A DNA stretch of 45,837 bases from the IMG/VR virus record IMGVR_UViG_3300038318_000164, positions 1-45,837 of that record; one strand, given 5' to 3'. Shown here one piece after another: positions 9,250 to 26,583 of the stretch. Origin of the DNA: a virus. Its lineage: Duplodnaviria; Caudoviricetes. The notes beneath the pieces were generated by a model. It saw only the letters and a program-made list of their open reading frames with translations. It did not search any database and was not told the origin of the DNA. The position numbers and the translations under genes are program-made. Every line of letters starts with the position of its first letter. Position 1 is the stretch's first letter.

Positions 9250-9574
9250 CTTCTAAATATTCTTGCAGCTGCTTAAATAACCGCTCATCTATTATATAGA
9301 AATTTTCAGGATTATTTAAACCTCCAAAGTTAAAAACTAACGACCAATATGGTTTTCCCATAGCAAAGGCTTCTTCTTTAAGTTTATCTATCCAATCTCT
9401 TTTAATACTCATAGATTGTTTTTCCGTCATAGCTGTTTTACATTCTATACAGAAGTGTTGCGTGCTGACATCCCCCTTAAAAAAGGGCGTTGCCCCGCTG
9501 TTTGGTTGCCTTTTTCCTTTCAGGCTTTTTGCTACTCTTGACTCCTGCGTTTTGCTGTACTTTCTTGTATTCAA
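9230..9574 (-). CDS. PD-(D/E)xK nuclease, Holliday-junction resolvase-like
   Basis: QE..VA...SGA...KGDV...IECK motif. Confidence 0.65.
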   Translation of the reverse strand: MNTRKYSKTQESRVAKSLKGKRQPNSGATPFFKGDVSTQHFCIECKTAMTEKQSMSIKRDWIDKLKEEAFAMGKPYWSLVFNFGGLNNPENFYIIDERLFKQLQEYLEGEANEE

Positions 9575-9959
9575 TATTATTGATAACTCCTTTCTGACCT
9601 GCTATATTTAATAATTGTTGAGCTTTTCTTATTACCCATGGGTCTTGTAAGGGTAAGAATGCTCCAGTACTGGCATCCCAATCTTTAAATGCTTCTGCAA
9701 AACATATCCGCTTTGCTATATCAGGATTATCCCTTTGCAACTGTACGAGCTCCCTACCCCATTCATCAAATTGCCTATCAGTAATCAAATTAGTATCCAT
9801 ATCATAATAGAGTTTACTATGAATAAGCATTTGTAGTCTTCGCCGTTGTATTAGTTCAGCTATTGGTAATTCTTCGTCTGTATATTGACCCGGTTGGATA
9901 AATGGATTCCTATTATCTTTTAAAGAGCTCTTCTTTGACTGAGCATTAAATAATGCCAA
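9477..9959 (-). CDS. Stand-alone NAD-ligase domain Ia-like protein
   Basis: LIHSKLYYDMDTNLITDRQFDEWGREL resembles LigA Ia YY..D...D.EYD. Confidence 0.65.
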   Translation of the reverse strand: MALFNAQSKKSSLKDNRNPFIQPGQYTDEELPIAELIQRRRLQMLIHSKLYYDMDTNLITDRQFDEWGRELVQLQRDNPDIAKRICFAEAFKDWDASTGAFLPLQDPWVIRKAQQLLNIAGQKGVINNIEYKKVQQNAGVKSSKKPERKKATKQRGNALF

Positions 9960-9963
9960 TATA

Positions 9964-10641
9964 TCACCTTCCTTGCTCTTGCCCTCTTTTGATATAATTT
10001 AAAGTGGCGATTAATGCTTTAGCTTGAGATATTGCATTAGTATAAATAATGCTACTTTTCTTTACTTCTGTTGCTATTAATGGAATTACAATTTCTGGAT
10101 TCTGTAGTTCATTGACCATTATACGAACTATTAATGAAGTGCATGTATTTTCATTCTTTCTTTTTCCGGAGCTACCAACCATTGCTCCAAGTAATCCAAA
10201 TGTTAATCCTCCAACCGCTGTGGCTAACCCTTTTCCTTTTACAATACTATTTCCATCTTCGTTTAATTCAAATTCTCCTAAGTCATTATAGTTATAAACT
10301 TTAGGTTGACCCTTCCTACCAACTATAACTGCGAACTTTTTATTGATATCATCTACATAAAAATGATTGTGCGTTCCTAATTTAAGATGCTTACTAATAT
10401 TGAAGTCCATATCTGTTAGCTGTTCTTCGATTGTTTTGGGTTTAACCTTAATCACAGCTGCAGGCTTTGAAGCCTGTTTTTTCTTTTCTACCTTGATTTT
10501 AAATATTGGTATTAGACCAAGTCCTGAAAGAATTAGAAATGTAAGACCTATCATCATCTCCTTTGTTGAAAACATTGCAATTGCCCCAAGTAACCAAAAC
10601 CCTGCCCATACTATAGCGAGTATTCTAAATGCTCTTTTCAT
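9964..10641 (-). CDS. Membrane protein with two N-terminal TM helices
   Basis: Hydrophobic N-terminus; AVGGLTFGLLGAMVG glycine zipper. Confidence 0.65.
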   Translation of the reverse strand: MKRAFRILAIVWAGFWLLGAIAMFSTKEMMIGLTFLILSGLGLIPIFKIKVEKKKQASKPAAVIKVKPKTIEEQLTDMDFNISKHLKLGTHNHFYVDDINKKFAVIVGRKGQPKVYNYNDLGEFELNEDGNSIVKGKGLATAVGGLTFGLLGAMVGSSGKRKNENTCTSLIVRIMVNELQNPEIVIPLIATEVKKSSIIYTNAISQAKALIATLNYIKRGQEQGR

Positions 10642-10716
10642 TAAATTTACCCCCTTAAAATTTTATGAGTTAGGCAGGAGTGGTTACCTGCCTTGACTTA
10701 TTATATAGATTTTTTC

Positions 10717-10923
10717 TTAATATTCGATACTTTTTACAACATCTTTTATGATTGCTAATCCACTATCACATGCTATATTCACTTCTCTTTGATATCCATG
10801 ATTCCAATGAATTATGACTGTATCTTTATCCTTTAATTCTAAATGGCTAATCCCTTCACGGGTCAGGCTTAGGGTTTCCCCTAAGCTCTTAACTAATTGT
10901 TCCTTAGTAACTCCTGCTTTCAT
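10717..10923 (-). CDS. Hypothetical protein
   Basis: ORF with GAGGAGG RBS; NIACDSGLAIIKDV motif. Confidence 0.65.
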   Translation of the reverse strand: MKAGVTKEQLVKSLGETLSLTREGISHLELKDKDTVIIHWNHGYQREVNIACDSGLAIIKDVVKSIEY

Positions 10924-11072
10924 TATTCATCCTCCTCTAAGTATTCAGCTTCGCCAAATAATTCTTCCAATAGTTCCGGGTCTTCGAATGGGTCACAATC
11001 ATTGCATTGTCCTACTAAATATTCTGCCTCCGTTTGCAGCTTACCGCAGTTCTCACAATAATGTTTTTCCAT
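10923..11072 (-). CDS. Small zinc-ribbon/acidic protein (49 aa, not in ORF track)
   Basis: MEKHYCENCGKLQTEAEYLVGQCNDCDPFEDPELLEELFGEAEYLEEDE with AGGAGG RBS; fills the gap exactly. Confidence 0.65.
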   Translation of the reverse strand: MEKHYCENCGKLQTEAEYLVGQCNDCDPFEDPELLEELFGEAEYLEEDE

Positions 11073-11680
11073 TAGTCTATCCTCCTATCTTCTAAATAAA
11101 CTTCTTCCTCAATAGCACTTTTGATAATCCAGCCAGTCCATTTGATTTCCTTTAGCTGCTCCTGCATATCCTTAACAGCCGCTTTCAATTCTTCATCAGT
11201 TTCAAATGGATTAGTGTAATTATGTCCACCACATTCCGGGCCAATCCCAAAGAACTTACTTACATTATTAGTGAGCTGTTTTCCACATTTCATACAATTA
11301 TGAGTAATCTCTTCTGTAATTTCACCCCATAGTTCCATCTGAACCATTCCTCGAGTTTCTTTAAGTTTTCTACCTACCATGATTCTCATTGGCATTGGTA
11401 CTCCATTATTCCATTTATCATGGAAATCGAATTCAGGACTTGCAGGCTTTGTCATATACTGACGAACCTTGATTTTATATATAGGTGAGCCCTGAATCTC
11501 TTGTACTGGATTTTCGCTTGAAATAGTAGGCCTTTGTTCTGTGATTTTAGCGCCTTTATTAAGTACTATGGTTAACTCTCCATCAAATCCCTTAAAAGCT
11601 TGTACAGCCGCTTTTAAATCATTGTACATTATACCATTTATCTCTAATGAACCTTTATATCCTTCTAATAGATTAATCAT
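11072..11680 (-). CDS. Hypothetical protein with DUF6011-like zinc finger
   Basis: CMKCGKQLT...GIGPEC. Confidence 0.65.
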   Translation of the reverse strand: MINLLEGYKGSLEINGIMYNDLKAAVQAFKGFDGELTIVLNKGAKITEQRPTISSENPVQEIQGSPIYKIKVRQYMTKPASPEFDFHDKWNNGVPMPMRIMVGRKLKETRGMVQMELWGEITEEITHNCMKCGKQLTNNVSKFFGIGPECGGHNYTNPFETDEELKAAVKDMQEQLKEIKWTGWIIKSAIEEEVYLEDRRID

Positions 11681-12320
11681 TCAATTCTCTCCTTCCCATT
11701 GCGTGTTTACCTTCTGTAAAACCACTTTCATAGGCATTATGGTCGAATGAGTCTTTGATAAGCCTGCTTACATTTCTTGACTTGGCTCCTTTGATAAAAT
11801 CGCTATACTCTTCTTCTACTTCCTTAGGAGTTATTATCATAAGCGCTTTACACTGTTCTTCGAGCTTTGATTTGATACCTGTCATAAAACCTAACACATA
11901 GCTGTTATATACACCGGAGCGTTCTCCTGTTTCTCTCCATCTTTTATGACCCTCTCTCTCAGCCAGTTTATGACCAAGTTTGAATAAGAATCTAAATACT
12001 TCTTTAGCCGCTTCTGCATCTGTACTATATCCATAAAATGCTATGCTTCTTTTACCGTAACTGAATGTCTTGCATCTGAAGTTATCTGCTATAATTGTAG
12101 CTAATTGGAATTTCCAAGCTTTACCTGCTCCAACTTCCTCAACCGCAATTTCAATCTTATCCTCTTGAGCCATTTCATCTTCAACATCTATTGCAGTAAT
12201 TCCATGTTTTGCCATCAACCTCTGAGCTGTTAACGCCGCTGACTCCGCCTCTGCTGCACTTGGGTTATTTAGGGATAAAGCTAAGCACTTTCTGATTTTG
12301 TCAATAATCTTTTCATCCAT
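11673..12320 (-). CDS. DUF2786-domain protein
   Basis: IIDKIRKCLALS...EAESAALTAQRLMAKHGI. Confidence 0.8.
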   Translation of the reverse strand: MDEKIIDKIRKCLALSLNNPSAAEAESAALTAQRLMAKHGITAIDVEDEMAQEDKIEIAVEEVGAGKAWKFQLATIIADNFRCKTFSYGKRSIAFYGYSTDAEAAKEVFRFLFKLGHKLAEREGHKRWRETGERSGVYNSYVLGFMTGIKSKLEEQCKALMIITPKEVEEEYSDFIKGAKSRNVSRLIKDSFDHNAYESGFTEGKHAMGRRELND

Positions 12321-12374
12321 TTTCTTTTCCTCCTAAAGTTTTTTGAGTTTTTATTACCTATCCTTATATTTAAT

Positions 12375-12403
12375 ATTATATAACATATTACTCCAGAAGT
12401 CAA
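12375..12403 (-). promoter_or_regulatory. Sigma-A type early promoter
   Basis: TTGACT-17 nt-TATAAT. Confidence 0.8.
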
Positions 12404-12406
12404 CAA

Positions 12407-12646
12407 CTACTTTGTTAGCTCTTTAATGAAACCGATTCTTTCCAGCTCCTGCAGGAATTCCTTATCGTTACTATAACTTATTTGTTCATTTTTAAATATC
12501 ATTACTCTTCTTGCTATATTATTCTTATAGGCTTCCACATTATCATATCTTGTCCAGTCCTCTAATTTCAATTGCACAATAATATCTCTTTCGTCCTGAC
12601 CTATATATGTTCCACCTTCAACTAATTCTATTTTAATCATTGTCAT
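12407..12646 (-). CDS. Hypothetical protein
   Basis: ORF with GGAGGG RBS. Confidence 0.6.
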   Translation of the reverse strand: MTMIKIELVEGGTYIGQDERDIIVQLKLEDWTRYDNVEAYKNNIARRVMIFKNEQISYSNDKEFLQELERIGFIKELTK

Positions 12647-12758
12647 CCCTCCAAGTTTTTATAGTTGCCCGTTAGGTCGATAGCTCATCCTTTAATCTTA
12701 TGCTACTGCTAATTGTTTTGCTCTACCTCTGTACCATTTGAGCATTTGTACTATCTCT

Positions 12759-13085
12759 TCATTTGTATTCAAACATTAATTTCTTGTCATTCCAAAACCT
12801 GGTTGCCTGGTGTATCATTTGTTTGAAGTCTTCATATTTCTTGGGTGTAACACAATATCCTTCTTTTGCTGCTTTGCCAATGACTTGGTGTAAATTATCA
12901 ATTACTGTTTTTACTATTGCACCTGACTCTGTTTCAAATACTAAGTGTGCTTTTGTATTCCTAATTAGCTTTGCTCTTTCACCAAATGTAGTGTGTCCGC
13001 TACCACATCTAAATACTGTAAATTCCTGCCCTATTTTTGCTTCAATTAAGTTACCTGCATGATTTACTAAGAATGTGTTTGTCAT
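12759..13085 (-). CDS. Hypothetical early protein
   Basis: ORF with AAGGAGG RBS directly behind a promoter. Confidence 0.7.
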   Translation of the reverse strand: MTNTFLVNHAGNLIEAKIGQEFTVFRCGSGHTTFGERAKLIRNTKAHLVFETESGAIVKTVIDNLHQVIGKAAKEGYCVTPKKYEDFKQMIHQATRFWNDKKLMFEYK

Positions 13086-13148
13086 CTTCTTTTCCTCCTT
13101 GAGTTTTTATAGTTTTTTAAAGTGTTTTTAACTTCTTTCCTTAATAAT

Positions 13149-13177
13149 ATTATATAACATATTCTTAGAAAAGTCAC
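13149..13177 (-). promoter_or_regulatory. Sigma-A type early promoter
   Basis: GTGACT-17 nt-TATAAT. Confidence 0.7.
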
Positions 13178-13210
13178 ACACTATTTTAAACAACTTGCGC
13201 TTTCTGAAAT

Positions 13211-13234
13211 AAAAAAGAGGCTTTGTCAGCCCCT
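13211..13234 (-). terminator. Rho-independent terminator after recA
   Basis: AGGGGCUGACAAAGCCUCUUUUUU. Confidence 0.75.
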
Positions 13235-14360
13235 AATTTATTAAAGATTTTATCTTGTTGTATATTTCAGTGAATAGATATTCATTTTCCTTCAGGTATT
13301 CTATAACATTAGGCTTACCTTGGAGTTTAATTAATTCGCCAGTATCATCTTCCATAATCTCCCCAGTCTCAATATCAATAATAGAAAACCAAGCTCCAGC
13401 CTGCTGGATAATACCGTATTTTAATGCTACATCTACAGTATCAGCTATAATATCAATTCCGCTATCATATTTTAATGTATAGAATCCAACTCTTCTATCT
13501 GGTTTACAAACTTTGGTTTTCGCTATATTTATCATTACCAAGTTACCTGCAGGTGATTCAGCACTTCTTCTTAACTCATTTCCCTTTTCATCTATATATG
13601 CTCCTTTTTGAAACATTAACCTTACACTACAATTATGCTTCCAGCCTTTACCTCCAGTTGTAATCATTCCACCATAAGGGCTGTTCATATCTTCACGCAT
13701 CTGATTTATTCCAATTAAAGTACAATTATATTTAGTACATAATAATTCTGCTTTCTTAGAGAATAATGTTAAAGCTGCTGCTATTCCGCCATAAGTCTTT
13801 TCTTCCATACTCTTTTCATAAGCTTGAGCTGAAAGCATTACCCCTAAACTATCTATAACTACTAATCCTACCTCATCTGTATCTATCATTTGTAAAAGCA
13901 TTTCAAATATCTGTTCTGCCGTTTGGCTTTGAGGTTTAAGTAATATCAATTTATCTATGTCTACTCCAAGCTTTTGTGCCCATTCTTCATCTAATGTATT
14001 TTCACAGTCGGCATATACGATTTGTTTTGGGCCTCTTGCCTTTATATAGTCCAACCTTGATTGCTGTTCCTTCTTTTTCTTATCAATAGCCTCAAGTTCT
14101 GTTATTTCATTTTCCCACTCTTCTTGAAATAACTTTTGAGCATTTGCCACTATATCAAGAGCTGTGGTTGTCTTACCACCATTTTCTTCTCCAGCAAATT
14201 CAACGATTCTACCTCTTGGTATTCCACCATATAGCATGTAGTTAGCTCTTGGACTACTGAATGGTATTTTCTGTGTTTCTATCCTTGGTATACCTCTTGC
14301 CGCAATTTCTTCCTTGTATTGTTTATTGAAATCCTTAATTAATATATCCAATTTGCTCAT
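13233..14360 (-). CDS. recA: RecA-family recombinase
   Basis: GGIPRGRIVEFAGEENGGKTT, VIDS, INQMRE, TTGGKG. Confidence 0.93.
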   Translation of the reverse strand: MSKLDILIKDFNKQYKEEIAARGIPRIETQKIPFSSPRANYMLYGGIPRGRIVEFAGEENGGKTTTALDIVANAQKLFQEEWENEITELEAIDKKKKEQQSRLDYIKARGPKQIVYADCENTLDEEWAQKLGVDIDKLILLKPQSQTAEQIFEMLLQMIDTDEVGLVVIDSLGVMLSAQAYEKSMEEKTYGGIAAALTLFSKKAELLCTKYNCTLIGINQMREDMNSPYGGMITTGGKGWKHNCSVRLMFQKGAYIDEKGNELRRSAESPAGNLVMINIAKTKVCKPDRRVGFYTLKYDSGIDIIADTVDVALKYGIIQQAGAWFSIIDIETGEIMEDDTGELIKLQGKPNVIEYLKENEYLFTEIYNKIKSLIN

Positions 14361-14361
14361 A

Positions 14362-14940
14362 TTAATCTACCTCACATGTCAAATATTTTCTACTTGCTAA
14401 ATAATCGCAGGTATGAACAAATTTTTCATCTTCCTCCTGTGGTTTCGGTAGTATCTCTTTACCTAATCGATAATCTAAATTCCATTGACCCATATGACTT
14501 CTTATAAGTCTTTGAATATTAGTTACTTGTTCTCTTAATTCATCCAAATCCCCGCAATCTACCTCAAATTCAAACTCTTCAAACTTCTGTTCAATAAAGT
14601 CTGCAGCATATAGTGGGTGCTCTGTTACCGTATAATTTGAACCATTATTTCCCTTTTTAATACTATCATGAAGTATTAATGCTGCTATAATTTCATCTTT
14701 AGGTAAATGGCTATTCTGCTCCAAGCTTAGTAAATCATTAGCTATCTTAACAGCTGCTTTTGTATGTTTAATTAGCCCACCTTCTCCTAAAGTATAAGCG
14801 GGGTGAAATTTTCCGGTTGTACTTGCAGGCATTTCGAAGAAATAATCCGGAGCCTCTTCTACACAATACTCTACAAATTCTTTTAATAATGCATCCTTGA
14901 TAAGATCAATTTCATTTCTTAGTATTGCAACCTTATCCAT
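14362..14940 (-). CDS. HD-domain phosphohydrolase
   Basis: PASTTGKFHP, GGLIKHT, ILHD, SHMG, DYLASRK. Confidence 0.85.
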   Translation of the reverse strand: MDKVAILRNEIDLIKDALLKEFVEYCVEEAPDYFFEMPASTTGKFHPAYTLGEGGLIKHTKAAVKIANDLLSLEQNSHLPKDEIIAALILHDSIKKGNNGSNYTVTEHPLYAADFIEQKFEEFEFEVDCGDLDELREQVTNIQRLIRSHMGQWNLDYRLGKEILPKPQEEDEKFVHTCDYLASRKYLTCEVD

Positions 14941-15491: not shown

Positions 15492-15999
15492 TAGCCATCT
15501 CCTCCCTCCAATATTCTGCAGCCCATTTCTTAACATTTCTAATAAAGGTATCTGCGTCATAGTCATAGAAGATTCTTTTCTTTCTTCCAGGGACTACAAA
15601 ATGTTTTACTTTTGCTTCCTTAATATCTTTTACATTTAATGATTTAGCCCCTTCATCCCGAATTCTTTTTAGTTCTTGGATTGGAACAAATGCTGTAATA
15701 TCATGCTCTATAAACCAAACAATTACTCCTGCTATTACTCCTGGGATTTTCGCTTTCTCCACCATTCCATCCCATTGGTCTTTTGTAATTCCTGCATTAA
15801 AATTTAGGGTATTACCAGAGAATGCTTTACATTCAAAGTAATATTGAAATGGGTATCTATATACGCCAAAGTCGCATATATTTCTTATTCCAGCATAACC
15901 CGCCATCGGGTCGGGAAAGCGGTCAAGAGAAATATCAGAATGTTTTAGAAAGGCTTTTTTTATTTCCTCTTCGAACTCCTTTCCTCTACTTACTCCCAT
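15478..15999 (-). CDS. recU: Holliday junction resolvase RecU-like
   Basis: RGKEFEEEI, CDF, FECKA. Confidence 0.75.
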   Translation of the reverse strand: MGVSRGKEFEEEIKKAFLKHSDISLDRFPDPMAGYAGIRNICDFGVYRYPFQYYFECKAFSGNTLNFNAGITKDQWDGMVEKAKIPGVIAGVIVWFIEHDITAFVPIQELKRIRDEGAKSLNVKDIKEAKVKHFVVPGRKKRIFYDYDADTFIRNVKKWAAEYWREEMANGKG

Positions 16000-16796
16000 T
16001 ACTTTCCCGCCTTTCTGCAGGATGTTTTATAATTACAATATTGACAAGTCTTCTTTGAAACATCTTCCGGCTTTGGCGGAGGTATTAATCTTTTAACATA
16101 TCTATCACATTCCTCAATTTTTGAAATAATATAGTCATATTTCATATCATCAGTTACTTCCAAGATAAATGCTTTCTTATCACAATTATCCCTATTTTCA
16201 TATAGAAACATTACCTGGTTAATTCCGAAGCAGGTTGCATAGGCTGTTCCTTGAGGTATATGCTCTTCCGCTACCCCTTGTCGGGATTGCCATTTATAAA
16301 TAGTTTCGGTTTTGATTTCAAGGATATAGTATTGTCCTTTATATTTGATAATACCATCACATAGGAAGCTCATATTTAAGTCCTTATGATATAGCTTAGT
16401 TTCAAATCCTTGTTTCTTAACTATTTCTAAATAATCAAGACCTCTCATTTTTACAAACTTTGCAACATCTATATATTCGCAATCTATTCCAAAGTCTTTC
16501 ATTTTGGTTATGGCACTTTGAATATGTTCATGTCGGGCGCTTCCCGATTCACAAATACCTACTAAACAAGCATTACTTCTTTCATTATCTACTTCTGCTC
16601 CAGTCACTTGAAAGTACATATTTCTAATACAAGCCATTGAGGATGGTTTATAGCTTTTAGAAGGTTTACGTGCTTCAAGTGAATCTTGCTTTTCAATAGA
16701 TGCCTTGAGGTCGGCCAAAAATTGCTCATTTACTGGCATTTGTGTTGTAGCCGCCTCAATTAATCTATGGATATTTTTAAGACTCTGTCTCGCCAT
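15999..16796 (-). CDS. Cas4-like PD-(D/E)xK exonuclease
   Basis: PSSMACIR, CDGII, LEIKT, Q..AY, C-terminal CQYCNYKTSC Fe-S ligands. Confidence 0.8.
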   Translation of the reverse strand: MARQSLKNIHRLIEAATTQMPVNEQFLADLKASIEKQDSLEARKPSKSYKPSSMACIRNMYFQVTGAEVDNERSNACLVGICESGSARHEHIQSAITKMKDFGIDCEYIDVAKFVKMRGLDYLEIVKKQGFETKLYHKDLNMSFLCDGIIKYKGQYYILEIKTETIYKWQSRQGVAEEHIPQGTAYATCFGINQVMFLYENRDNCDKKAFILEVTDDMKYDYIISKIEECDRYVKRLIPPPKPEDVSKKTCQYCNYKTSCRKAGK

Positions 16797-17880
16797 TGCC
16801 CATCACTCTATCATCCTCTAATAGAGCTACTATCTGTGTTATTTTTCCTGATGTCATCTTAATTGCTTTTTCGTGTCCATACCATAATTCAACAACTTCT
16901 TCTGGTTGAGCTGAGATTTGAGATTTCAATAATTCAATATCAGCGCAGCATGTAAATGGTTGGAAGTTCTCACTTCCTTGATATTTAATAAGCTCTGTAC
17001 CATTACTTCTCTTACTACTAAATATAACTCCATCTTTTGTGAATGTTAGATACACAGCATTCTTATCATAAGTTGCTACGAATAATGCAAGTCTATCTAA
17101 TAGATTTAGAACCGCTCCCTTTGGCAGTTTACAAACGCTTTTAAACTCTGTTTCAAGATAAGCATTAATTGCTTCTGATGGATAATCTTCGATACCTTCT
17201 AATTGAGAACCAAACACGATTACATTATTAGTACTGAATAATATCTTATTTCCGGATACCTGAACTGTAATCTTTTCTTCATCCATCAAAGCCAATAATT
17301 CCATAAGCTCTGCAGGCAATAATACCTTATCTGGGAACACTTTAATATCAGTACTGCATACTTTGAATGTATCTGTTGTAAGTACCTTGTCATCGAAATA
17401 ATATCCAGTTAGACAAGGTATTTCCATTGTTTGTGCGAGGGCCGCCTTATTAGCATTTAATAATACTTTTACTGTGGATAGATTGATTTCTGATTTTTCA
17501 ACCGTAGTATCAAATTTGTATTCCGGGAACTTAATTAATTGTCCTTCTTCGTCAAGAGGTAATTCAATACTATATGTACCATTACCTTTAACCTCTAAGC
17601 TGTTCTCTTTTAAAGTAAGTGTAATTGTTTCAGTAGTAGTCTTGGCCACCAACTTACTAAATATATCTGTTTGTACAACTACATAGAAGTCATCCCCTTC
17701 AATATCCTTCTCCATTACCTTTAGAGTGTTTGTAGCATCTGTTGTAATGAGTGTAAGAACTCCTTTCTTTAATACTATGGCCATAAGTCCTGTGATAGGA
17801 ATCATCTTATTATTAGATGCTCCTTTAATAGCCTTTGAAACCATTTCTTGCAACTTCAATGTTTTGAGTTTAAGCTTCAT
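16777..17880 (-). CDS. dnaN: DNA polymerase III beta sliding clamp
   Basis: 367 aa; LITTD, FPEY, LTGYYF...TTDTFK, EDYPS pattern. Confidence 0.8.
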   Translation of the reverse strand: MKLKLKTLKLQEMVSKAIKGASNNKMIPITGLMAIVLKKGVLTLITTDATNTLKVMEKDIEGDDFYVVVQTDIFSKLVAKTTTETITLTLKENSLEVKGNGTYSIELPLDEEGQLIKFPEYKFDTTVEKSEINLSTVKVLLNANKAALAQTMEIPCLTGYYFDDKVLTTDTFKVCSTDIKVFPDKVLLPAELMELLALMDEEKITVQVSGNKILFSTNNVIVFGSQLEGIEDYPSEAINAYLETEFKSVCKLPKGAVLNLLDRLALFVATYDKNAVYLTFTKDGVIFSSKRSNGTELIKYQGSENFQPFTCCADIELLKSQISAQPEEVVELWYGHEKAIKMTSGKITQIVALLEDDRVMGNGETES

Positions 17881-17898: not shown

Positions 17899-18609
17899 TT
17901 AATTTTGAATTTGTTTATTATCATGAGTGTAAAGTGTTTTTGACTTACCTACTGGTTTTCCATTCTCATACTTTGAAACAGCATAAACAACTTTATATGT
18001 TATTGGTAGGATTACAATTTCATATCCCGTTTTGATTAATACTTGCATAATCAGCATTACTACTAAATTATTTATCGGCATTTGCCCTAAGAAAGCTATT
18101 GGTAGAAAAATTAAACTATCTATTACTTCTCCTGCAAAACTTGATATGATAGCTCTCCATCCGAAGCCCTTATGGTCTATTGGATGCTTCTCTTTCATTC
18201 TCTTAAATACCCTATCGTTAACGAAGTCTCCAATCACAAATGCTGACAGTGATGCAAATAAGATTCTTGGAGTGTTTCCCAATACTGTTTGGAAAGCTTC
18301 TTGATGAGTCCAAAACGAAGGAGCTGGTGTTACAATAACTAAACTAAATACAATTACCATAAATAAGTTTGCTGCAAATCCCATGTAACAAGTTAACCTA
18401 CTCCATCTATATCCATATACCTCGGAGAATAAATCTGATAAGATATAGGTTATTGGGAAGATGAATACTGCTCCGGTCATTACGATACCGAATGGTAGTA
18501 AAACCTGCTTTGATGTTATTATGTTACTGATTAATAAACTTACCACAAATAATAGTGTTAGGACTAATTGTAAAAAACTAATATTTTTGATGTTAGATAA
18601 TTTTTTCAT
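17899..18609 (-). CDS. yhhQ: Queuosine-precursor (preQ0/preQ1) transporter, YhhQ/Vut_1 family
   Basis: SNIITSK, FPITYILSDLFSEVYGY, RILFASLSAF, GEVIDSLIF; multi-TM. Confidence 0.9.
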   Translation of the reverse strand: MKKLSNIKNISFLQLVLTLLFVVSLLISNIITSKQVLLPFGIVMTGAVFIFPITYILSDLFSEVYGYRWSRLTCYMGFAANLFMVIVFSLVIVTPAPSFWTHQEAFQTVLGNTPRILFASLSAFVIGDFVNDRVFKRMKEKHPIDHKGFGWRAIISSFAGEVIDSLIFLPIAFLGQMPINNLVVMLIMQVLIKTGYEIVILPITYKVVYAVSKYENGKPVGKSKTLYTHDNKQIQN

Positions 18610-18626
18610 TATACTTTATCCTCCTA

Positions 18627-19091
18627 TTAATAAATTTCTTTGGACTGGTCTTGGTATTCTTTAAACAATACCAAACAATCTTGTCTATTTTTTTCTTTGA
18701 TTTCCAAGATTGTTTCATCTTGAAGTCCATCTTGGATAAAGTTATAAATGAAATCATCTCTAAATCCAATTTCTTCTGCATCCGCTGGTGTGCATCCATA
18801 ATATACGGTTTTGATATTAGCCCATATAATAGCGGATAAACACATTGGACAAGGATATCCAGTTGCATAGATAACACATCCAGTTAAATCATGAGTTCCT
18901 TTTACCTTGCAGGCTTCTCTAATTGCATTAACTTCTGCATGAGCTGTTGGGTCGTGGTCGCCTAATACTGAATTTGATGTTACTGATAAGATTGTTCCAT
19001 CTTTATCAATTACAGCTGCTCCAAATGGGCCACCTAAGTTTTGGTTCATTGTTTCTCTTGCTCTTTTAATTGCTAATTCCATTACGTTCAT
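18627..19091 (-). CDS. guaD: Guanine deaminase (cytidine-deaminase fold, GuaD type)
   Basis: GGPFGA, DPTAHAEVNAIR, PCPMC, GFRDDFIY, C-terminal Tyr. Confidence 0.85.
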   Translation of the reverse strand: MNVMELAIKRARETMNQNLGGPFGAAVIDKDGTILSVTSNSVLGDHDPTAHAEVNAIREACKVKGTHDLTGCVIYATGYPCPMCLSAIIWANIKTVYYGCTPADAEEIGFRDDFIYNFIQDGLQDETILEIKEKNRQDCLVLFKEYQDQSKEIY

Positions 19092-19227
19092 CTTATTCTC
19101 TCCTTAATTTTTATTATTGGTTTTATTTGACAATAATGATATTTTAAGGAGGTATTGGTTTTTTCATTGGTGTTTCCTACCTTTCTTCATATTTTATTTA
19201 TATAAAGAGGCTTTTTATCGCCTCATA

Positions 19228-19258
19228 TATTATATAGAACTTTTTATTCTTTTATAAA
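19228..19258 (-). promoter_or_regulatory. Phage-type promoter
   Basis: TTTATA-14 nt-TCTATATAATA. Confidence 0.55.
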
Positions 19259-19959
19259 GCTGGGTCAATAATATTATTTAATTGAAAAGCTATTGCTCTA
19301 TCGATACAGGTTCCACATGTGCCACATGGTTTATCTCCACCTTCGTAACAGCTCCAAGTTAATTGATAGGGAGTTCCAAGTTCTAATCCTTCTCTAACTA
19401 CTTCAGCCTTTGTTAGGTTAACTAATGGAGCTCTTAAATTTACCTTTTCATAGGTTCCAATATTAATAGCTTGCCCAATAGCATTTGTAAACTCCTCACT
19501 ACAATCAGCGTAGGCTCTTCCAGCTGAATCATCGGCATGGGCTCCTAAATAAATATCCACCATATCATTAGGATAAATAGAAACTGCCAATGACGCCACT
19601 GCGGATAGCATTAATCCATTTCTAAATGGAACATAAGTTCTAACCATTCCTTCTCCATTTTTCGCTATCTGCTCGGCATAACTTTCATGTACTATCTCTT
19701 CTGTACTCTGAGATAACAGTGGACAGTTGCTATATTTGAATATTGCGGATAAATCTAATTCATAATGCTTTACCCCATAATATTCAGCTATCTTCTTAGC
19801 GCATTCTAATTCCTTGCTATGTTTCTGTCCATAGAAAACAGATACAGTTGAAACATTCTCAATTCCTAACTCGTCTATTGCTATTGAAATGCAAGTGGTA
19901 GAATCTACACCACCACTGCTTAAAACAAGGGCTTTTTTATTCACTTTATTTTCCTCCAA
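19252..19959 (-). CDS. queC: 7-cyano-7-deazaguanine synthase
   Basis: SGGVDS PP-loop, YGQKH, YVPFRN, TWSCY...CGTCGTC. Confidence 0.95.
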   Translation of the reverse strand: MEENKVNKKALVLSSGGVDSTTCISIAIDELGIENVSTVSVFYGQKHSKELECAKKIAEYYGVKHYELDLSAIFKYSNCPLLSQSTEEIVHESYAEQIAKNGEGMVRTYVPFRNGLMLSAVASLAVSIYPNDMVDIYLGAHADDSAGRAYADCSEEFTNAIGQAINIGTYEKVNLRAPLVNLTKAEVVREGLELGTPYQLTWSCYEGGDKPCGTCGTCIDRAIAFQLNNIIDPAL

Positions 19960-19966: not shown

Positions 19967-20878
19967 TTAAAATAAGGATAATCTCTTCGGCCCTGGGATA
20001 TACTTAATATTAGAAGCCTTTTCAGATAAATATCTTAGATGATACCTCAGCCTTGCTTTATAATCAACTTGTAATTCATCTAAGGTAAAACCATACTTAC
20101 TAATTGTTTTTTCAAAGGCGTCTTGATGAGTTGGAGATAAATGGGAATAATGCTCAGGCAAGCGTTTCGCTTTTTCACTAATAGCTATAATTCCAACATC
20201 AGTAGTTATATTTCCGTTTGCTCCTGTCATTATCCAGCTTGTGCTATCAGCACTTGTTATTGGGTAAGCCTCAAGTAAACTAAATGATGTCATTCCAAAT
20301 GCATGCACCTTAACTTTTGGATTACTTGATTTCATAATGATATTAAAACAACTATCCAAGAATGATTTCTTCGTTGGCATTGGTTTTCCTACCATACCTC
20401 CAAGGGCTATGTAAGGAATTGGTTGTCCATTATCATCTCTCCATTCAAGAGCCTGTTCTAAATAACGATAAGGTTCTCCGACGTGGAAAGTATATAGAAG
20501 ACCTTCAGGCTTTTTCATTCTTGGTCTCATATATAAATAGTTTTCCCAAGTGGCTGCAGCTGCTTCCTCAACTTGTTCAGGAGTATGCCCTTTAATAATA
20601 TCTCCAGGGATAACGTCTATCTGCCCGTATAGTTCAATATGCTCTGAATAAGTGTTAATGAAATCAATATATTCATCAACATCTATTGACTTTTGTTTTG
20701 TCCAAGCTGTAAACGCTCCGCTATCGATAAATAATTTTTTATTAACTGGTTTGTTTTCCAATAGTTCAATGAACTTAGAAAACTTCTGTCTTACATAAAA
20801 GTAACTCATTAAAATATTTCCTGGTTCATCAAATACTATATCCGTAAATGCTTCTGAACCTGCAAAGTATAAATCCAA
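19967..20878 (-). CDS. dpdA: DNA 7-deazaguanine transglycosylase (TGT-fold DpdA)
   Basis: FIDSGAF, DVIPG, FH.GE, IALGG, VHAFG, SADSTSW; adjacent to queC and polA. Confidence 0.8.
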   Translation of the reverse strand: MDLYFAGSEAFTDIVFDEPGNILMSYFYVRQKFSKFIELLENKPVNKKLFIDSGAFTAWTKQKSIDVDEYIDFINTYSEHIELYGQIDVIPGDIIKGHTPEQVEEAAAATWENYLYMRPRMKKPEGLLYTFHVGEPYRYLEQALEWRDDNGQPIPYIALGGMVGKPMPTKKSFLDSCFNIIMKSSNPKVKVHAFGMTSFSLLEAYPITSADSTSWIMTGANGNITTDVGIIAISEKAKRLPEHYSHLSPTHQDAFEKTISKYGFTLDELQVDYKARLRYHLRYLSEKASNIKYIPGPKRLSLF

Positions 20879-20900
20879 TACATCTACCTCCTCTCTGACT

Positions 20901-20931
20901 TATTATATAGAATTATTAGTCTAATTGTAAA
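20901..20931 (-). promoter_or_regulatory. Phage-type promoter for dpdA
   Basis: TTTACA-14 nt-TCTATATAATA. Confidence 0.6.
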
Positions 20932-23228
20932 GGTTCACCATACCATCTCTCGGTAATCTCTACATCGCATTTACTTGGAACGACTAAGTCCTTTGCCGCG
21001 TCTATCATTAATTGAGAGAATCTTTCTGCTACTTCCTTAGCATTTTCTTTTGGACATTCTCCTATTAATTCATCATGTATTGGTAATAATAATCTAAATC
21101 CTAATTCTTTTAACTTCTTATCATTACCGATTAAAATCATAGCAAGCTTTGTTTGGTCGGCCGCTGAGCCTTGAATTCTACTATTTACACATTGACGGGT
21201 TGCTTCTGCTATATATCCACCATTGTCCTTTATTAGAATTCCTTCAGCCTTGGCCTTAGCCTTAATAGCTTCTTTCTCTTTTCGGCTGTACGCTCTATTT
21301 AGAATATTTATATATTTCTGCTTAGTAGCTTCATCCACTTCTAATGGATTATCATCGAATTCATCTTCATCATCAAATAATGGGTCAAAGTCTTTTGGAG
21401 CTCCTCCAATATAAGTGAACTCATATGGTTCAAGCTGCATGTTTGGTAGTCTTCTTTTTCTTCCCCAAACTGTTGTTACAAAGCCATAATCTCTTGCCAT
21501 ACCTTCGCTTTCTTCCATAAACCTTTTAAGTCCAGGGAAAGAAACCATAACTTTGTCATAAATCTCTTGAGCTTTTTTCTTAGTAACCCCTAAGTCTTCT
21601 GCAATAGCTGCTACACCCTTACCATAACAAACACCAAGTACAATTGCCTTTGCGGCTCCACGTCTTTCCTTACCTTCAGGGTTTCTTGTTCCATCTTCCC
21701 TAAATTCTTTACATTCATCATAAGGCATATTATACGCAATAGATGCAATTTCTACATATAGGTCTTTGCCTTGCTTATAAGCATTTATCATTTTTTCATC
21801 TTTAGACATATGAGCTATTAATCTTGGCTCTTGGGCTGAATAGTCACTTGATATTAATACATATCCTTCACTTGCCCTAAACATTTGTCTTATCTCATCG
21901 TTATGGGATGGAATATTCTGCATATTAGGGTCGGATGAACTAAATCTTCCAGTATCCGCTCCTATCTGGTTAAAGCTTGCATGTATCCTTTTTGTTTTAG
22001 GATTTACAATGGTTGGCATTTTATCAATATAGGTACTTAATAATTTAGCTATTCCTCGATATTCTAATATAGCCCTAGCCACCGGATGGTCAATCTTGGT
22101 TAAGACTTCTTCTCCGGTTCCTCTTGGTTTTTCTTTATCCACAGGTTTAATTTCAAGGACATCATATAACATTATTGCTATCTGAGTTGGGCTTGATATA
22201 TTTACCGGATATTGTAATTTATTAGCAGCACCTTTCTTCTCTCTATAATTATCTAAGGCTTCGCCAAATTTGTCACATTCTTTATAGAATTTATCTTCTG
22301 CTTCTTTCAATTTTGCATTGTATTCCTTGGATAACTTTTCTGCAAATTCAAAATCAAATGCTATCCCGGTATCTTCCATCTCTGCTACTATGTTGATTAG
22401 TGGCATTTCTATATGATTAAATACAAAAGCAGGGCCAGTTAAATCTCTTTCAATGCAAATTGGGTCATTCTCTGTTAGGAATGGTCTTTGGAATTCATAT
22501 AACTCATAGGTTATTTCCGCATCCCTTGCTGCATATAAATATCCGGTATTAACTGGAATATGAGTAAACGGGATACCTTTGAATAAACTATCAAATGTAA
22601 ATGCATCTCCTTCACCTTTTAAACAGTATTTCTTATGAAGCGCTTTCAAGTTGTTTTTAGGCTCGTTTTCATTTAATAATCTTGCTGCTATATATCCATC
22701 CCAGTGAGGTACCAATTCAACTCCAAGTTGATTTTTAATTACTCTAATATCAAATTTAGCATTGAACATAATTACCTTGATTTTACTATCAACTATTCTT
22801 TGCATTTGCTTGGTTGCGAATTCATCTGATACCTGATTATCTATTTCAATTCCAGTTACATAGCTTACATGATGAAGTGGAATGTACACCGCTTTATTTC
22901 CGGGTGTATAAAGACATAATCCAGCAAGCGTACAAGTTATAGGGTCAAGGCTATTAGTTTCTGTATCAATGGAGATTACTCCATTCTTAATGCATTCATC
23001 TATATACTTTTCAAATTCAGCTTCATTCCTAATTATATCATAACTATCTGCATATTTTCCTAAGTTCTTGTTTACCATAGCACTTATGGTTGAGATTCGC
23101 TCCAATAAGCCTCCGCCACCTTTTATTGTTATCCCCACATTGGCTTGAGCTGTTTTTGAAGCTTTCTTTGCTAATAAAGAATCTCTCGCTTTGGTTGCCC
23201 TCGGCGAGAGATTAAATAATCCGCTCAT
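20916..23228 (-). CDS. polA: Family A DNA polymerase (3'-5' exonuclease plus polymerase, no 5'-3' exonuclease)
   Basis: DTET, FNAKFD, TGRFSSSDPNMQNIP, DYSAQEPR, KAIVLGVCYG, IQGSAAD, HDE. Confidence 0.95.
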   Translation of the reverse strand: MSGLFNLSPRATKARDSLLAKKASKTAQANVGITIKGGGGLLERISTISAMVNKNLGKYADSYDIIRNEAEFEKYIDECIKNGVISIDTETNSLDPITCTLAGLCLYTPGNKAVYIPLHHVSYVTGIEIDNQVSDEFATKQMQRIVDSKIKVIMFNAKFDIRVIKNQLGVELVPHWDGYIAARLLNENEPKNNLKALHKKYCLKGEGDAFTFDSLFKGIPFTHIPVNTGYLYAARDAEITYELYEFQRPFLTENDPICIERDLTGPAFVFNHIEMPLINIVAEMEDTGIAFDFEFAEKLSKEYNAKLKEAEDKFYKECDKFGEALDNYREKKGAANKLQYPVNISSPTQIAIMLYDVLEIKPVDKEKPRGTGEEVLTKIDHPVARAILEYRGIAKLLSTYIDKMPTIVNPKTKRIHASFNQIGADTGRFSSSDPNMQNIPSHNDEIRQMFRASEGYVLISSDYSAQEPRLIAHMSKDEKMINAYKQGKDLYVEIASIAYNMPYDECKEFREDGTRNPEGKERRGAAKAIVLGVCYGKGVAAIAEDLGVTKKKAQEIYDKVMVSFPGLKRFMEESEGMARDYGFVTTVWGRKRRLPNMQLEPYEFTYIGGAPKDFDPLFDDEDEFDDNPLEVDEATKQKYINILNRAYSRKEKEAIKAKAKAEGILIKDNGGYIAEATRQCVNSRIQGSAADQTKLAMILIGNDKKLKELGFRLLLPIHDELIGECPKENAKEVAERFSQLMIDAAKDLVVPSKCDVEITERWYGEPLQLD

Positions 23229-23977
23229 TAAAACTTATCCTGATTTCCTACGGTTCTGCGTCTACCTGTGGGGCGGGAAGTAGGCGCTTTATCTTCTGTC
23301 TGAGCAGATGCTGGGATTCTTCTTCTACCTACAGGAGCTTCATTTGTAGGCTCTCTTTTTGAAGTTGAATTTCTTCTATCATTTTTTGGGTTTCTTTCTG
23401 GCGGAGCTTGTTCTTCAACATCTTCTTCAAAGTATCCATTATCTAAGAAAAACTCCAATTCTTCATAAGATTTATCAAGAATAAGTGTTCCTAATAATTC
23501 TGGTACTTCTGGTAGGTCTTCTAAGGTTACATCATCTGTATCCAATGCATATGTTTCATAAGTAGTTTTAGTATCTCCCTTTTTACCATTTCTTTCAATT
23601 TCAAACGGAGTGGATACTAAAGGGTTATATCTTGCACAAAGACTGGATAGTTTACTAAAGAATGTTTTTCCTCTATCCCAAATCTTAACTTCTTCGGATT
23701 CTACATCGTACAGGATTACGAATAATCTTGCAAGGACTCTGAACCTGGCCGCACATAAAGGACAATCATCCAATGGTTGGTTATATTCTCTTAAACAGTT
23801 AACATAACGCTTCTTACCATCTACTTCAATTTCATGTACTGCATAACCTTCAACATCATCAATTGTATTATACATAAATCTTACAGTTGCTACATCTTTG
23901 TCATTCTTCAAGGAGAAGAATCCTCCACCACCTTGACCTCCGTAATTCTCAACTTCGTTAACATTAAATCTTGCCAT
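23228..23977 (-). CDS. Single-stranded DNA-binding protein (gp32-like)
   Basis: FFSLKNDKD..VRF, CPLC, IERNGKKGD..TTY, disordered tail; adjacent to polA. Confidence 0.65.
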   Translation of the reverse strand: MARFNVNEVENYGGQGGGGFFSLKNDKDVATVRFMYNTIDDVEGYAVHEIEVDGKKRYVNCLREYNQPLDDCPLCAARFRVLARLFVILYDVESEEVKIWDRGKTFFSKLSSLCARYNPLVSTPFEIERNGKKGDTKTTYETYALDTDDVTLEDLPEVPELLGTLILDKSYEELEFFLDNGYFEEDVEEQAPPERNPKNDRRNSTSKREPTNEAPVGRRRIPASAQTEDKAPTSRPTGRRRTVGNQDKF

Positions 23978-24101
23978 AATTTGTTTCCCCTTTCGTTTTT
24001 AAAGTTTTTGTATTAGTCAGCCTATCGGCTTGAACTCCGTGTAAATTAAATGATTTCCTAAATAACCAAATTGATATTCTTTGCATTAGCTTTCTTATCA
24101 T
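23964..24101 (-). CDS. Small basic hypothetical protein (45 aa, not in ORF track)
   Basis: MIRKLMQRISIWLFRKSFNLHGVQADRLTNTKTLKTKGETNYGKI with GGGGGA RBS behind a promoter. Confidence 0.4.
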   Translation of the reverse strand: MIRKLMQRISIWLFRKSFNLHGVQADRLTNTKTLKTKGETNYGKI

Positions 24102-24123
24102 CTGCTGAAATCCCCCCTATGAT

Positions 24124-24154
24124 TATTATATAGAAATTTTCTTAGAATCCTAAA
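24124..24154 (-). promoter_or_regulatory. Phage-type promoter
   Basis: TTTAGG-14 nt-TCTATATAATA. Confidence 0.55.
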
Positions 24155-24732
24155 GCTAATGGCATTAATTTTTCTCTTAACTTCTTTCTCATATTACTTA
24201 GGGTCATGACGCTAACCCCCATCATCTTAGATATTTCAGAATTGCTCCACCCATTTAAGATTAAACTGCAATATTGAAGTTCTTTCTCAGTTAAGTTATA
24301 TTGAGTTAGTGTATCCATAATTTCATCATCCTCGCAAGTAGCCGCTACTAAATCAAATCCATTTTCCACCATAACCTCATAACTATCTGAAAAGAATAAA
24401 GCCTTTCTCTTTTGAGTATTAAGTGCTTCTGTCTCTTCCCTAAATTTATTCATTAAGGTCGTTGTAAAGTATGTACTGAAATTAACTTGGCCACTTTTAT
24501 AGGTTTGTAAGCACATATCTAATTTCTCTAAGGAGAAACTTGCAATATCTTCATTGGTAAGTCCATAATACTTGGCCGAAATATTGATAATAAGCTTATA
24601 GGTTTTTTCAAATGCCAAAGCCAAGAGAGAGGGGTTTAAACTCTCTCTGTAGGCCTCAGCTATCTGCTCCAAGTTCATATTACGAGTATCCTCAATTATT
24701 AGTGTTGAAAGCATATTAAGTGTTCTTAACAT
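24142..24732 (-). CDS. Phage-encoded sigma-70 family factor (regions 2 and 4)
   Basis: Region 2 FSTYFTTTLMN; region 4 LTEKE...GWSNSEISKMMGVS...LREKL. Confidence 0.8.
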   Translation of the reverse strand: MLRTLNMLSTLIIEDTRNMNLEQIAEAYRESLNPSLLALAFEKTYKLIINISAKYYGLTNEDIASFSLEKLDMCLQTYKSGQVNFSTYFTTTLMNKFREETEALNTQKRKALFFSDSYEVMVENGFDLVAATCEDDEIMDTLTQYNLTEKELQYCSLILNGWSNSEISKMMGVSVMTLSNMRKKLREKLMPLALGF

Positions 24733-24779
24733 CTGTTTTCCCCCTTTAAAGTTTTCAGTTGTTTGAGTTTTCCAAGTTA

Positions 24780-25487
24780 CTATTTAGATGCTTTTCCAGC
24801 TTGCTTATTCTTCTGGAATTCTAAAGAAGCATCTAATAGTTTTGTTATTTTCTCTTTGTTTTCTTTAGTCTCTTCATCAAAATGAACTCTTGCATCAAAC
24901 ATATGATTCGTTTTCTTAAACTGTGTTAAATCTTGAACTGCCTTTGAACGCATCCATAAGGTAATACCCTTTTTGTTAAAAGTAAAGGCCATATACATTT
25001 TACCATCTACTTTTAAACTTCTAAAACTTGGTACCGTAGCTTTAAATACTTCTGTTCCTCTTTCAACCGCCAATTGTTCAATAAAAGCTTTTAATGGATG
25101 GTCACCTAAAATAGTTTCACGTTTTTGCTTTGATGCCTTTTCTGTCTTAGTTTTCTTTTCAGACTTTGTTTCTTCCTGCTTAGGTTCTTCTGATGCTGGT
25201 TCCTCATTAGCAGGCTCTTCTTGCTCTGCTGGAGTCTCTTCTTTTTCCTCGGCAGGTTCTTCTACTGTTTCAGTAGCTTCTTCCTGTATAGCCTCTTCAG
25301 CTACTTCTTCTGATTGAGGTTGTTCTTCTACCACTTCATCTTCCATAGGTTTCCACCATCTTTTTAGAGTTGCAGGACTAATCTTTCTTTCTTCTCCTGA
25401 TTCCTCTAATCTGATAACAACTTGTTTTTCATTCCCACTAACTAATTCTGCAATCTGACCATTTCGTACGGACTTATACTTTTTCAT
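24780..25487 (-). CDS. Early protein with long acidic E/P/A linker
   Basis: Two folded-looking ends joined by a low-complexity linker; directly behind a consensus promoter. Confidence 0.7.
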   Translation of the reverse strand: MKKYKSVRNGQIAELVSGNEKQVVIRLEESGEERKISPATLKRWWKPMEDEVVEEQPQSEEVAEEAIQEEATETVEEPAEEKEETPAEQEEPANEEPASEEPKQEETKSEKKTKTEKASKQKRETILGDHPLKAFIEQLAVERGTEVFKATVPSFRSLKVDGKMYMAFTFNKKGITLWMRSKAVQDLTQFKKTNHMFDARVHFDEETKENKEKITKLLDASLEFQKNKQAGKASK

Positions 25488-25551
25488 TTTAATACCTCCA
25501 TAAAGTTTTTTTAGTTTTGATAAGTTATTGTTAATCTCTTATCTTAATAAT

Positions 25552-25580
25552 ATTATATAACATATTATAAGCAATGTCAA
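25552..25580 (-). promoter_or_regulatory. Perfect sigma-A promoter
   Basis: TTGACA-17 nt-TATAAT. Confidence 0.85.
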
Positions 25581-25587
25581 GTCTTTT

Positions 25588-26583
25588 TTAAAACAATTCC
25601 TGAAGATTTTCAAACTCCTCTTTTTCTAAATCATTAATGTCTTTTCCTTCAGGAACAATATAAGAAGTAACTAATTTACTTCCATTTAAAGCTTTCTTTA
25701 ATCTTGCAGTGGCTCGTTGGCCGGCAATATCTGGGTCAAGTGCGGTTATTATCTTCCTACATCCAAGTTTTCTAAGCTGGTCATATTGATATTCAGTTCC
25801 TAATCCTAATAGAGCTACAGCTGGTTTTCCATAGACGTAACAAGTTAAAGCATTTAGTATTGATTCACATACTATAACTTCCTTTGCATCTTTAGGTAAT
25901 TCGTATAATCCATAAACTGGTTTATTAATTCCCTCCGGATAATGGAAGAATTTAATGTCAACACTTCTTCTTGCTATAAATAAAGTATTACCATTTATAT
26001 CTCTTACCGGGAATGTTAAACATCTTAATACACTTTTGACTTTTCCAAACTTATCTTTCAATTCAAAATGATTGTCATATCCCACATCAAATTGTTCTAT
26101 CACTTCATCCGTTAATCGCCTTTTATACATATAAGGATGATAATATCTGTATGAATCCAATTCCTCTTCTGTAATATAGTTGTTGGTTATTTTATTATTA
26201 CCCCTTTGCAGGTCAAGTATTATATCTTTTCTATTTTCTATAGAGATTGTTAAGAAGTTCTTTATTAGCCATTCTCTTCCAAATACACCATCATCATCTT
26301 TTCCAAAGCAATGACTTATCATCTGCTCCAAAGTAGCGGTATACCCGCAAGTAAAACAGTGAACTGTTCCTGCGGGCACCCCTTCTTTATTTACCGTTGA
26401 TATACCACATGATGGTTTTCTTTCCTGACCTTCAGCGTGAATTGGACAATTAAACTGTATATTTCTTGGCCCTGGTTTAAATTCTGCAAATCGCTGAATA
26501 CCGTTTAAAGCCAATTGTGTTTTGAGTTCATTTAGAACTTCCAGCTCTCCCGCTAATATTGGATTTTTATTTACATAAAACAT
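25588..26583 (-). CDS. dnaG: DNA primase (CHC2 zinc finger plus TOPRIM)
   Basis: CPIH...HCFTCG, VCES, DPDIAG, KDIND. Confidence 0.9.
   Translation of the reverse strand: MFYVNKNPILAGELEVLNELKTQLALNGIQRFAEFKPGPRNIQFNCPIHAEGQERKPSCGISTVNKEGVPAGTVHCFTCGYTATLEQMISHCFGKDDDGVFGREWLIKNFLTISIENRKDIILDLQRGNNKITNNYITEEELDSYRYYHPYMYKRRLTDEVIEQFDVGYDNHFELKDKFGKVKSVLRCLTFPVRDINGNTLFIARRSVDIKFFHYPEGINKPVYGLYELPKDAKEVIVCESILNALTCYVYGKPAVALLGLGTEYQYDQLRKLGCRKIITALDPDIAGQRATARLKKALNGSKLVTSYIVPEGKDINDLEKEEFENLQELF

Follow-up and report, generated by a model that had tools for sequence, protein, structure and literature searches.

A conserved terminal Leu-Phe motif on phage DpdA and the phage beta clamp as its candidate partner

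Leu-Phe motifs in the window

We examined a contig of the Caudoviricetes, IMG/VR record IMGVR_UViG_3300038318_000164, whose entire 45,837 bases are called the window here and which represents a partial phage genome, the contig being incomplete. On its (-) strand lies the gene of DpdA (19967..20878), a DNA 7-deazaguanine transglycosylase of the DpdA1 type with 303 amino acids (phrog_887, E 1e-53). The protein ends in KRLSLF (residues 298-303; 19970..19987), at the tip of a coil tail formed by residues 290-303. The same strand carries the gene of a beta sliding clamp (16777..17880), the likely partner of this tail. From the comparisons described below we consider it probable that DpdA, the DNA polymerase PolA and a protein with a ligase-Ia domain carry a phage-tuned clamp-binding tag, a conserved and portable basic-x-L-F peptide at one terminus.

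The original prediction had named five terminal Leu-Phe (LF) motifs and likened them to the bacterial clamp-binding consensus QL[S/D]LF. All five were located in the genes named, and the gene identities hold. Besides the DpdA tail they are MSGLF at the N-terminus of PolA (23214..23228; gene 20916-23228), MALF at the N-terminus of the ligase-Ia protein (9948..9959; gene 9477-9959), which starts with TTG after a ribosome-binding-like site, NALF at the C-terminus of the same protein (9480..9491) and LQELF in the primase (25591..25605; gene 25588-26583), all on the (-) strand. Among the 62 genes of the window a C-terminal LF was observed three times against 0.20 expected (LF frequency 0.0032, P = 0.001), and an LF within the first six residues twice against 0.8 expected (P = 0.19). 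The window alone gives little information on the motifs, and each was therefore compared in relatives.

Three of the five were conserved there, the C-terminal motif of DpdA and the N-terminal motifs of PolA and ligase-Ia. The primase motif was rejected, as LF occurs in 1/65 distinct C-terminal pentapeptides, which is the level of chance; the match to phrog_47 reaches residue 327 of 331, and LQELF is the end of the primase domain. NALF was also dropped as independent evidence. It lies inside the 98 bases that the ligase-Ia gene shares with the resolvase gene (9230-9574), where the codons for the resolvase residues ATPFFK largely dictate it, and it occurs only in the three sequences having this overlap.

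In PolA, L[F/W] was found within the first 8 residues of 70 of the 83 distinct N-termini, including those of Dp-1 (QKGLF), Flasso (QNSLF) and phiCTP1 (MALF); the PolB proteins of 9g, CAjan and JG054 begin with D-A-[I/L]-G-[F/L]-F-W. For ligase-Ia, 24 complete homologues were compared, after removal of a false hit and a truncated row from 26. The motif is N-terminal in 11 of them, and each of the other 13 carries a K/R-rich LF at its C-terminus. A C-terminal LF is absent from eight of the 11; the remaining three, that of the window included, terminate within the resolvase overlap. Because the motif moves between the termini, the ligase-Ia LF behaves, as far as sequences can tell, as a docking peptide. 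A sigma factor ending in LALGF, considered as a T4-like clamp tail, was discarded, since this end is not conserved (0 C-terminal of 22).

The DpdA tail and phage clamps

The DpdA of the window is homologous to those of 9g, CAjan and Dp-1, shows 38-41% identity to those of Dp-1, MS1 and Flasso, and has a tRNA-guanine transglycosylase (TGT) fold according to a Foldseek search of its model. Among the best 120 of 1278 homologues, with 54-97% identity, 112 terminate exactly in LF, and the positions next to it are variable; the remaining ends are LI (4), LFDI (2), LY or LL. In an alignment of 75 rows L302 is invariant (75/75), F303 is present in 72 and positions 300-301 are variable, giving the tail consensus K-K/R-x-S/K-L-F. 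Conservation of the tail, the first point on which the original prediction could be checked, was thus confirmed. Residues 290-303 are predicted as coil outside the barrel, with a predicted local distance difference test (pLDDT) score of 74 and then 65, compared with 94.7 overall. The tag persists at approximately 30% identity in the DpdA proteins of E. coli, Pseudomonas, Vibrio and Rhizobium phages. In DpdA proteins fused to QueF-like or QueC-like domains (L022, L026, L028-L030, L032, L027 and L178, two long non-fusion rows having been set aside) L[F/I] is kept at the junction in 7/8, so that a free C-terminus is not needed.

The DpdA tail differs from the acidic C-terminal Phe of the SSB type, as it is basic and is retained inside fusions. 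The single-stranded DNA-binding protein SSB (23228-23977, (-) strand) ends in QDKF and the helicase DnaB (26583-27869, (-) strand) in TDVF, in both cases acidic residues and Phe. The terminal F is kept in 60/87 SSB and 48/57 DnaB relatives. These ends were rejected as LF tags and represent a second shared docking motif.

We then compared the DpdA tail with the presence of a clamp in 20 named DpdA phages, 18 of them hand-picked from 60 spread rows of 245 records, to which Dp-1 and Flasso were added; clamps were searched with phrog_947 against whole records. DpdA ends with L[F/W] within four residues of its end in 13 of the 14 clamp-bearing phages and in none of the 6 clamp-less ones. The tagged, clamp-bearing phages are Dp-1 (QRRLF), Flasso (QGKLF), CAjan (VMELF), 9g (QDLFDE), JG054 (IQELF), a Stenotrophomonas phage (QMELF), ZHS (KQSLW), MiCath, RHEph06, 83AMN, VspDsh_1, Yong-L2-223 and VpKK5, and the clamp-less phages are Cracklewink, Allegro, Sour, Megan gp3, RothD and SfI. 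This second check therefore also agreed with the original prediction. In 9g, JG054, VpKK5 and others dpdA adjoins the clamp gene.

A similar picture emerged from a tree of 75 DpdA cores, whose tails had been trimmed and which had been thinned at 75% identity, with 63 tagged proteins, 2 fusions and 3 untagged proteins among the 68 with a clamp and 0/7 tagged among those without. Loci of unknown clamp status (16 metagenome loci and most genome_contigs loci) were dropped from this count, some of which end in LF (L241, L246, L248 and L265), and the clamp-less records L046 and L078 are just 57-77% complete. The co-occurrence is consistent with clamp docking. It is not statistically decisive, because there are only about three lineages on each side, three tagged with a clamp and three untagged without, separated by long branches.

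Two observations on other proteins belong here. In phiSM (L071), a ParB-like protein adjacent to DpdA ends in VNLF and is a possible adaptor. The DpdA-like proteins of clamp-less enterobacterial prophages of the SfI and RothD type (L066:384-1136, L064:471-1223 and L089-L168) end in QLAFE[V/I] or a close variant in 79/80 loci, which is possibly a host-clamp motif.

Tagged families, the clamp pocket and the genome setting

To see which other proteins carry the tag, we surveyed 164 loci with a Dp-1-type clamp, in which 2911 open reading frames gave 102 families of at least three representatives. Twelve families have a terminal L[F/W] in 54-100% of their members: ligase-Ia (23/23), DpdA (58/65, C-terminal), PolA, C5 methyltransferases (4/5), two families of N6/N4 methyltransferases (5/6 and 3/5), S-adenosylmethionine methyltransferases (6/6), glycosyltransferase-like proteins (9/10), DUF5591 (2/3), DUF6884-like (4/4) and ParB-like proteins (16/20) and a family of 169 amino acids (9/10), several of these annotations being weak matches below the Pfam cut-offs. 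One further family has the motif in 3/8, and the other 89 together in 47/1453. The precursor families are mostly untagged (QueC 2/33, deaminase 0/18, transporter 2/28), and the same applies to the enzymes for precursor supply in Dp-1, Flasso, CAjan, 9g and JG054. Judging from family and gene position, the tagged families are likely DNA-acting enzymes.

One of them, missed by the original prediction, is represented in the window by an N6/N4 DNA methyltransferase ending in RPARPLW (6112..6852, (-) strand; Pfam N6_N4_Mtase), which sits among the clamp loader genes and is a candidate further clamp client; its family is the one with 3/5, and relatives end in SRLF or ISLF. Three tagged families of unassigned function are candidate DNA-modification enzymes: the 169-amino-acid family (L011:13605-14111), for which an ESM Atlas search gave no hit, the ParB-like family of 132 amino acids in loci without dpdA (L289:5361-5756) and the DUF6884-like family beside dpdA (L005:5986-6483). 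In phiCTP1 two genes at the dpdA site of its relatives (L049:24299-25799) start with MIVDLF and MKNRLF, the second being a DNA methyltransferase.

The clamp of the window contains Pfam beta domains, and its model (pLDDT 92) matched bacterial beta clamps with template modelling (TM) scores of 0.82-0.84 for the four best hits. In the alignment to the B. subtilis clamp, in which window TTDTFKV faces ATDSHRL and DYPSEAI faces NYPDTTS, T169, V174, P234 and I238 of the hydrophobic pocket are kept, and the C-terminal edge is acidic (E355-D356-D357). The roles of the pocket subsites were assigned by E. coli clamp numbering, by which the LF subsite remains hydrophobic. The position of the Gln-binding His is Phe or Tyr in 100/111 clamps, and the P-M-R edge is replaced by L-L-E-D-D.

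The motif is basic-x-L-F rather than the QL[S/D]LF cited in the original prediction. Of 61 distinct tails, 7 have Gln at its canonical place, four residues before Phe. This Gln is present in Dp-1 and Flasso, and in the window the position is Arg. Over 61 Dp-1-like pairs the mean charge is +2.4 before the LF of the DpdA tails and -2.6 at the clamp end. As the tag is basic (KKxLF) and the edge of the clamp pocket acidic, the sequences suggest a tuning of the tag to the phage clamp. In the Queuovirinae the DpdA tails are acidic and the clamps retain a terminal Arg, four of the six least basic DpdA tails pair with clamps ending in IPE or ISE, and in one lineage (L037, L040 and L041) both DpdA and PolA carry LW and the clamp end differs. 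These charge patterns appear at the level of lineages and are no test of co-evolution.

The loader genes for delta (5113-6051; profile matches and delta alignment), delta-prime (6854-7696) and a DnaX-like protein (7681-8727; profile matches for both) are all on the (-) strand. Residues 60-63 of delta, QSFI, are likely the clamp plug by analogy, its position being presumably that of E. coli delta. Positions 62-63 of delta hold two hydrophobic residues, preceded by a basic residue or Asn, as in NSLF of phiCTP1 and KGLF of Flasso, with QSFI in the window.

A complex of the clamp with DpdA residues 274-303 was modelled and scored 0.33, 0.42 and 0.40, compared with 0.02, 0.02 and 0.01 for the controls. 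The mark used is reached by 116/157 solved and 2/215 mismatched pairs, and passing scores of 0.60 or less include just 18 of the 157 solved pairs, yet both mismatches. At least 82% of the contacts were shared between runs, and the pLDDT of the partner was 40-44. The modelled binding, the third check, thus lends docking weak support (0.40 against 0.02 for the best control) and yields no interface. The pass may reflect likeness to solved beta clamp-peptide complexes. For the claim of the original prediction that DpdA docks on the phage clamp, the conserved tail, its co-occurrence with a clamp and the model speak in favour; pocket docking is a candidate.

By profile matches the replication genes of the window encode, besides the beta clamp, the three loader subunits and PolA, also SSB, primase, helicase, RecA and the ligase-Ia domain protein, and its modification genes encode DpdA, QueC, a queuosine-precursor transporter, a deaminase and the N6/N4 methyltransferase. 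The precursor supply genes for transporter, deaminase and QueC (17899..19959, (-) strand) bear no tag. QueC scores above the NCBIfam cut-off and a precursor transporter is adjacent, so that linked 7-deazaguanine precursor genes are present; FolE, QueD, QueE and QueF were not identified in the 45.8 kb of this incomplete contig. The zinc deaminase (18627-19091, (-) strand), which lies between QueC and the transporter and is found in many relatives, is presumably similar to guanine deaminase, and guanine freed by DpdA could be a candidate substrate.

Of 50,697 annotated phage records, 7 match the clamp, and they stem from five phages (phiCTP1, FA88, Flasso, Dp-1 and MS1); by its sequence the window belongs to the Dp-1/phiCTP1/Flasso-like type. 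The replication modules of Dp-1, Flasso and phiCTP1 are made up as in the window, from clamp, loader, PolA, primase, helicase, ligase-Ia and RecA. Dp-1 and Flasso also share the LF motifs on DpdA and PolA. As differences, the window has QueC, the transporter and the deaminase but no identified FolE, QueD, QueE or QueF, and phiCTP1 has a tagged methyltransferase in the position of dpdA. The host is likely one of the Firmicutes, because close DpdA relatives occur in fermentation metagenome contigs as well as in bins that carry the label Clostridiales or Tissierellaceae. The window further contains a diversity-generating retroelement (39560-41134, (-) strand), with a reverse transcriptase (39560-40765, YMDD), a template repeat (40852-40961) and a variable repeat (41025-41134) that closes gene 40995-43007; 16/16 mismatches fall on template adenines.

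A probable clamp-binding tag and its alternatives

The DpdA of the window resembles a beta-clamp client in sequence, although it has no canonical Gln, and binding is predicted. According to the mechanism that we propose, the tag would insert into the hydrophobic pocket of the beta clamp that the phage itself encodes, and DpdA would thereby be held on freshly copied phage DNA. The phage loader would place clamps on replicating phage DNA, PolA would occupy one clamp pocket through its N-terminal tag, and DpdA and the methyltransferases would use the second pocket or the clamps left behind the fork, so that guanine would be exchanged for the 7-deazaguanine base soon after synthesis. Through contacts of the basic residues preceding LF with the acidic edge, the clamp of the phage would be preferred to that of the host. 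Tethering would aid efficiency and targeting and be catalytically dispensable. A coupling of modification to replication would follow if the binding holds, and we rate it somewhat more probable than not; that host DNA is thereby excluded from modification is the least supported step and rather doubtful.

Several known systems resemble this arrangement. The bacterial clients with QL[S/D]LF (PMC9690074) likewise carry a short terminal LF peptide on a flexible end, have a partner of the beta-clamp fold and include several clients per tag, as in a toolbelt. In the present case, known from sequence, the clamp is encoded by the phage, the motif is K/R-K/R-x-x-L-F with Gln mostly absent, the tag is N-terminal on PolA, and the clients are base-modifying enzymes. 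Dnmt1-PCNA offers a sliding clamp that recruits a DNA-modifying enzyme to new DNA (PMC9690074), the ring being PCNA and not beta. The T4 alpha-glucosyltransferase is a DNA modifier reportedly recruited by the gp45 ring, also not beta, and this interaction is disputed. Closest are the Queuovirinae, for whose DpdA1 (9g, CAjan and iggy) insertion of 7-cyano-7-deazaguanine (preQ0) after replication has been demonstrated by experiment (PMC6884629, PMC10516641 and PMC10484667). They share a homologous enzyme with approximately 32-34% identity, the terminal LF and a clamp gene adjoining dpdA, and differ by an acidic tail and by PolB in place of PolA. The word 'clamp' is absent from the main text of these three papers, and full-text literature searches, in which subscription journals were outside the scope, turned up no report of a link between DpdA, or another phage modifier, and a clamp.

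A number of observations weigh against the proposed clamp-binding tag. As reported in the main text of PMC6884629, 9g DpdA modified E. coli plasmid DNA without a phage clamp, giving 790 2'-deoxy-preQ0 (dPreQ0) per million with DpdA alone and approximately 45,000 2'-deoxyarchaeosine (dG+) with Gat-QueC. The same text gives a modification of G of 28% (dPreQ0) in Rosebush and 32% in CAjan, compared with 1.7% in the tagged Dp-1, and Allegro, which belongs to the Rosebush species, lacks clamp and tag alike. Since 9g DpdA works without a phage clamp and Rosebush is heavily modified, tethering is dispensable for DpdA activity, and the tag is no predictor of the modification level. The 9g Gat-QueC, predicted to be tagged, has no terminal tag. 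A preprint of 2025, in which the enzymes were tagged at the C-terminus, failed to reproduce the T4 precedent (bioRxiv 10.64898/2025.12.06.692756).

Other points concern the motif itself. The canonical Gln is absent in 54/61 tails, L[F/W] in 13/83 PolA N-termini, most of which have LL, FF or LS-F, and the tag in the DpdA-QueC fusion L178. The DpdA proteins of L262 and L219 end in LGL and LI, and phiSM encodes a clamp and an untagged DpdA, of which a search of viral contigs gave no relatives. For the delta plug, the match is loose, as is its conservation over 32 sequences. The small number of lineages and the missing model interface, both described above, count on the same side.

A first alternative is that the tag binds mainly host DnaN, or host and phage clamps equally, with no preference for phage DNA. 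The 9g DpdA, which modifies E. coli plasmids (main text of PMC6884629), ends in QDLF-DE, near the bacterial consensus, its tail might have used host DnaN in that assay, and the ends of the clamp-less SfI/RothD-type proteins resemble the host clamp motif. In the clade of the window, however, the tag is basic and without Gln, which fits the acidic edge of the phage clamp, and LF tags track phage clamps; we therefore regard a host partner as unlikely. We think it similarly improbable that the partner of the tag is a different hub shared in phage replication (PolA, helicase, SSB or loader), or that the basic tail touches DNA and LF anchors it. The DpdA tail is indeed K/R-rich, and the hub genes accompany the clamp in the Dp-1-like clade, where co-occurrence cannot discriminate between them. 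The Queuovirinae, however, which have PolB and no annotated loader in the stretches read, still keep clamp and tag with acidic tails, PolA carries the tag itself, and the clamp model passed its controls, if weakly. Terminal hydrophobic residues often pack back onto the protein, the tail pLDDT is 65-74 and not below 50, and the primase LF is of such a kind, but a structural LF, packed against the barrel or against the second subunit of a dimer, or a degradation signal, with the other motifs coincidental, is very improbable given the same motif on 12 unrelated families, at either terminus, switching ends in ligase-Ia and retained inside DpdA fusions.

Beyond the tag itself, we tentatively envisage, at somewhat less than even chance, a private modification toolbelt, in which a re-tuned beta clamp with an acidic edge and the basic LF tag would recruit DpdA, methyltransferases and downstream tailoring enzymes exclusively to DNA on which the phage loader has placed the clamp. 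Such a toolbelt, if true, would account for the carriage of a clamp by these phages and for the way in which self DNA is marked during replication. The tag could then also serve to recognise undiscovered DNA-modifying enzymes from sequence, as in the 169-amino-acid, DUF6884-like and ParB-like families. DpdA has been described only as post-replicative, and the tag bears on how it could reach new phage DNA in time, before restriction, and on how host DNA could be spared. Consisting of two residues, the tag makes the idea of clamp docking testable in CAjan or 9g on laboratory E. coli, for which genetics of dpdA are available. If docking is true, base-modifying enzymes would join the list of beta-clamp clients, with a hint of how a phage with PolA may gain beta-clamp processivity.

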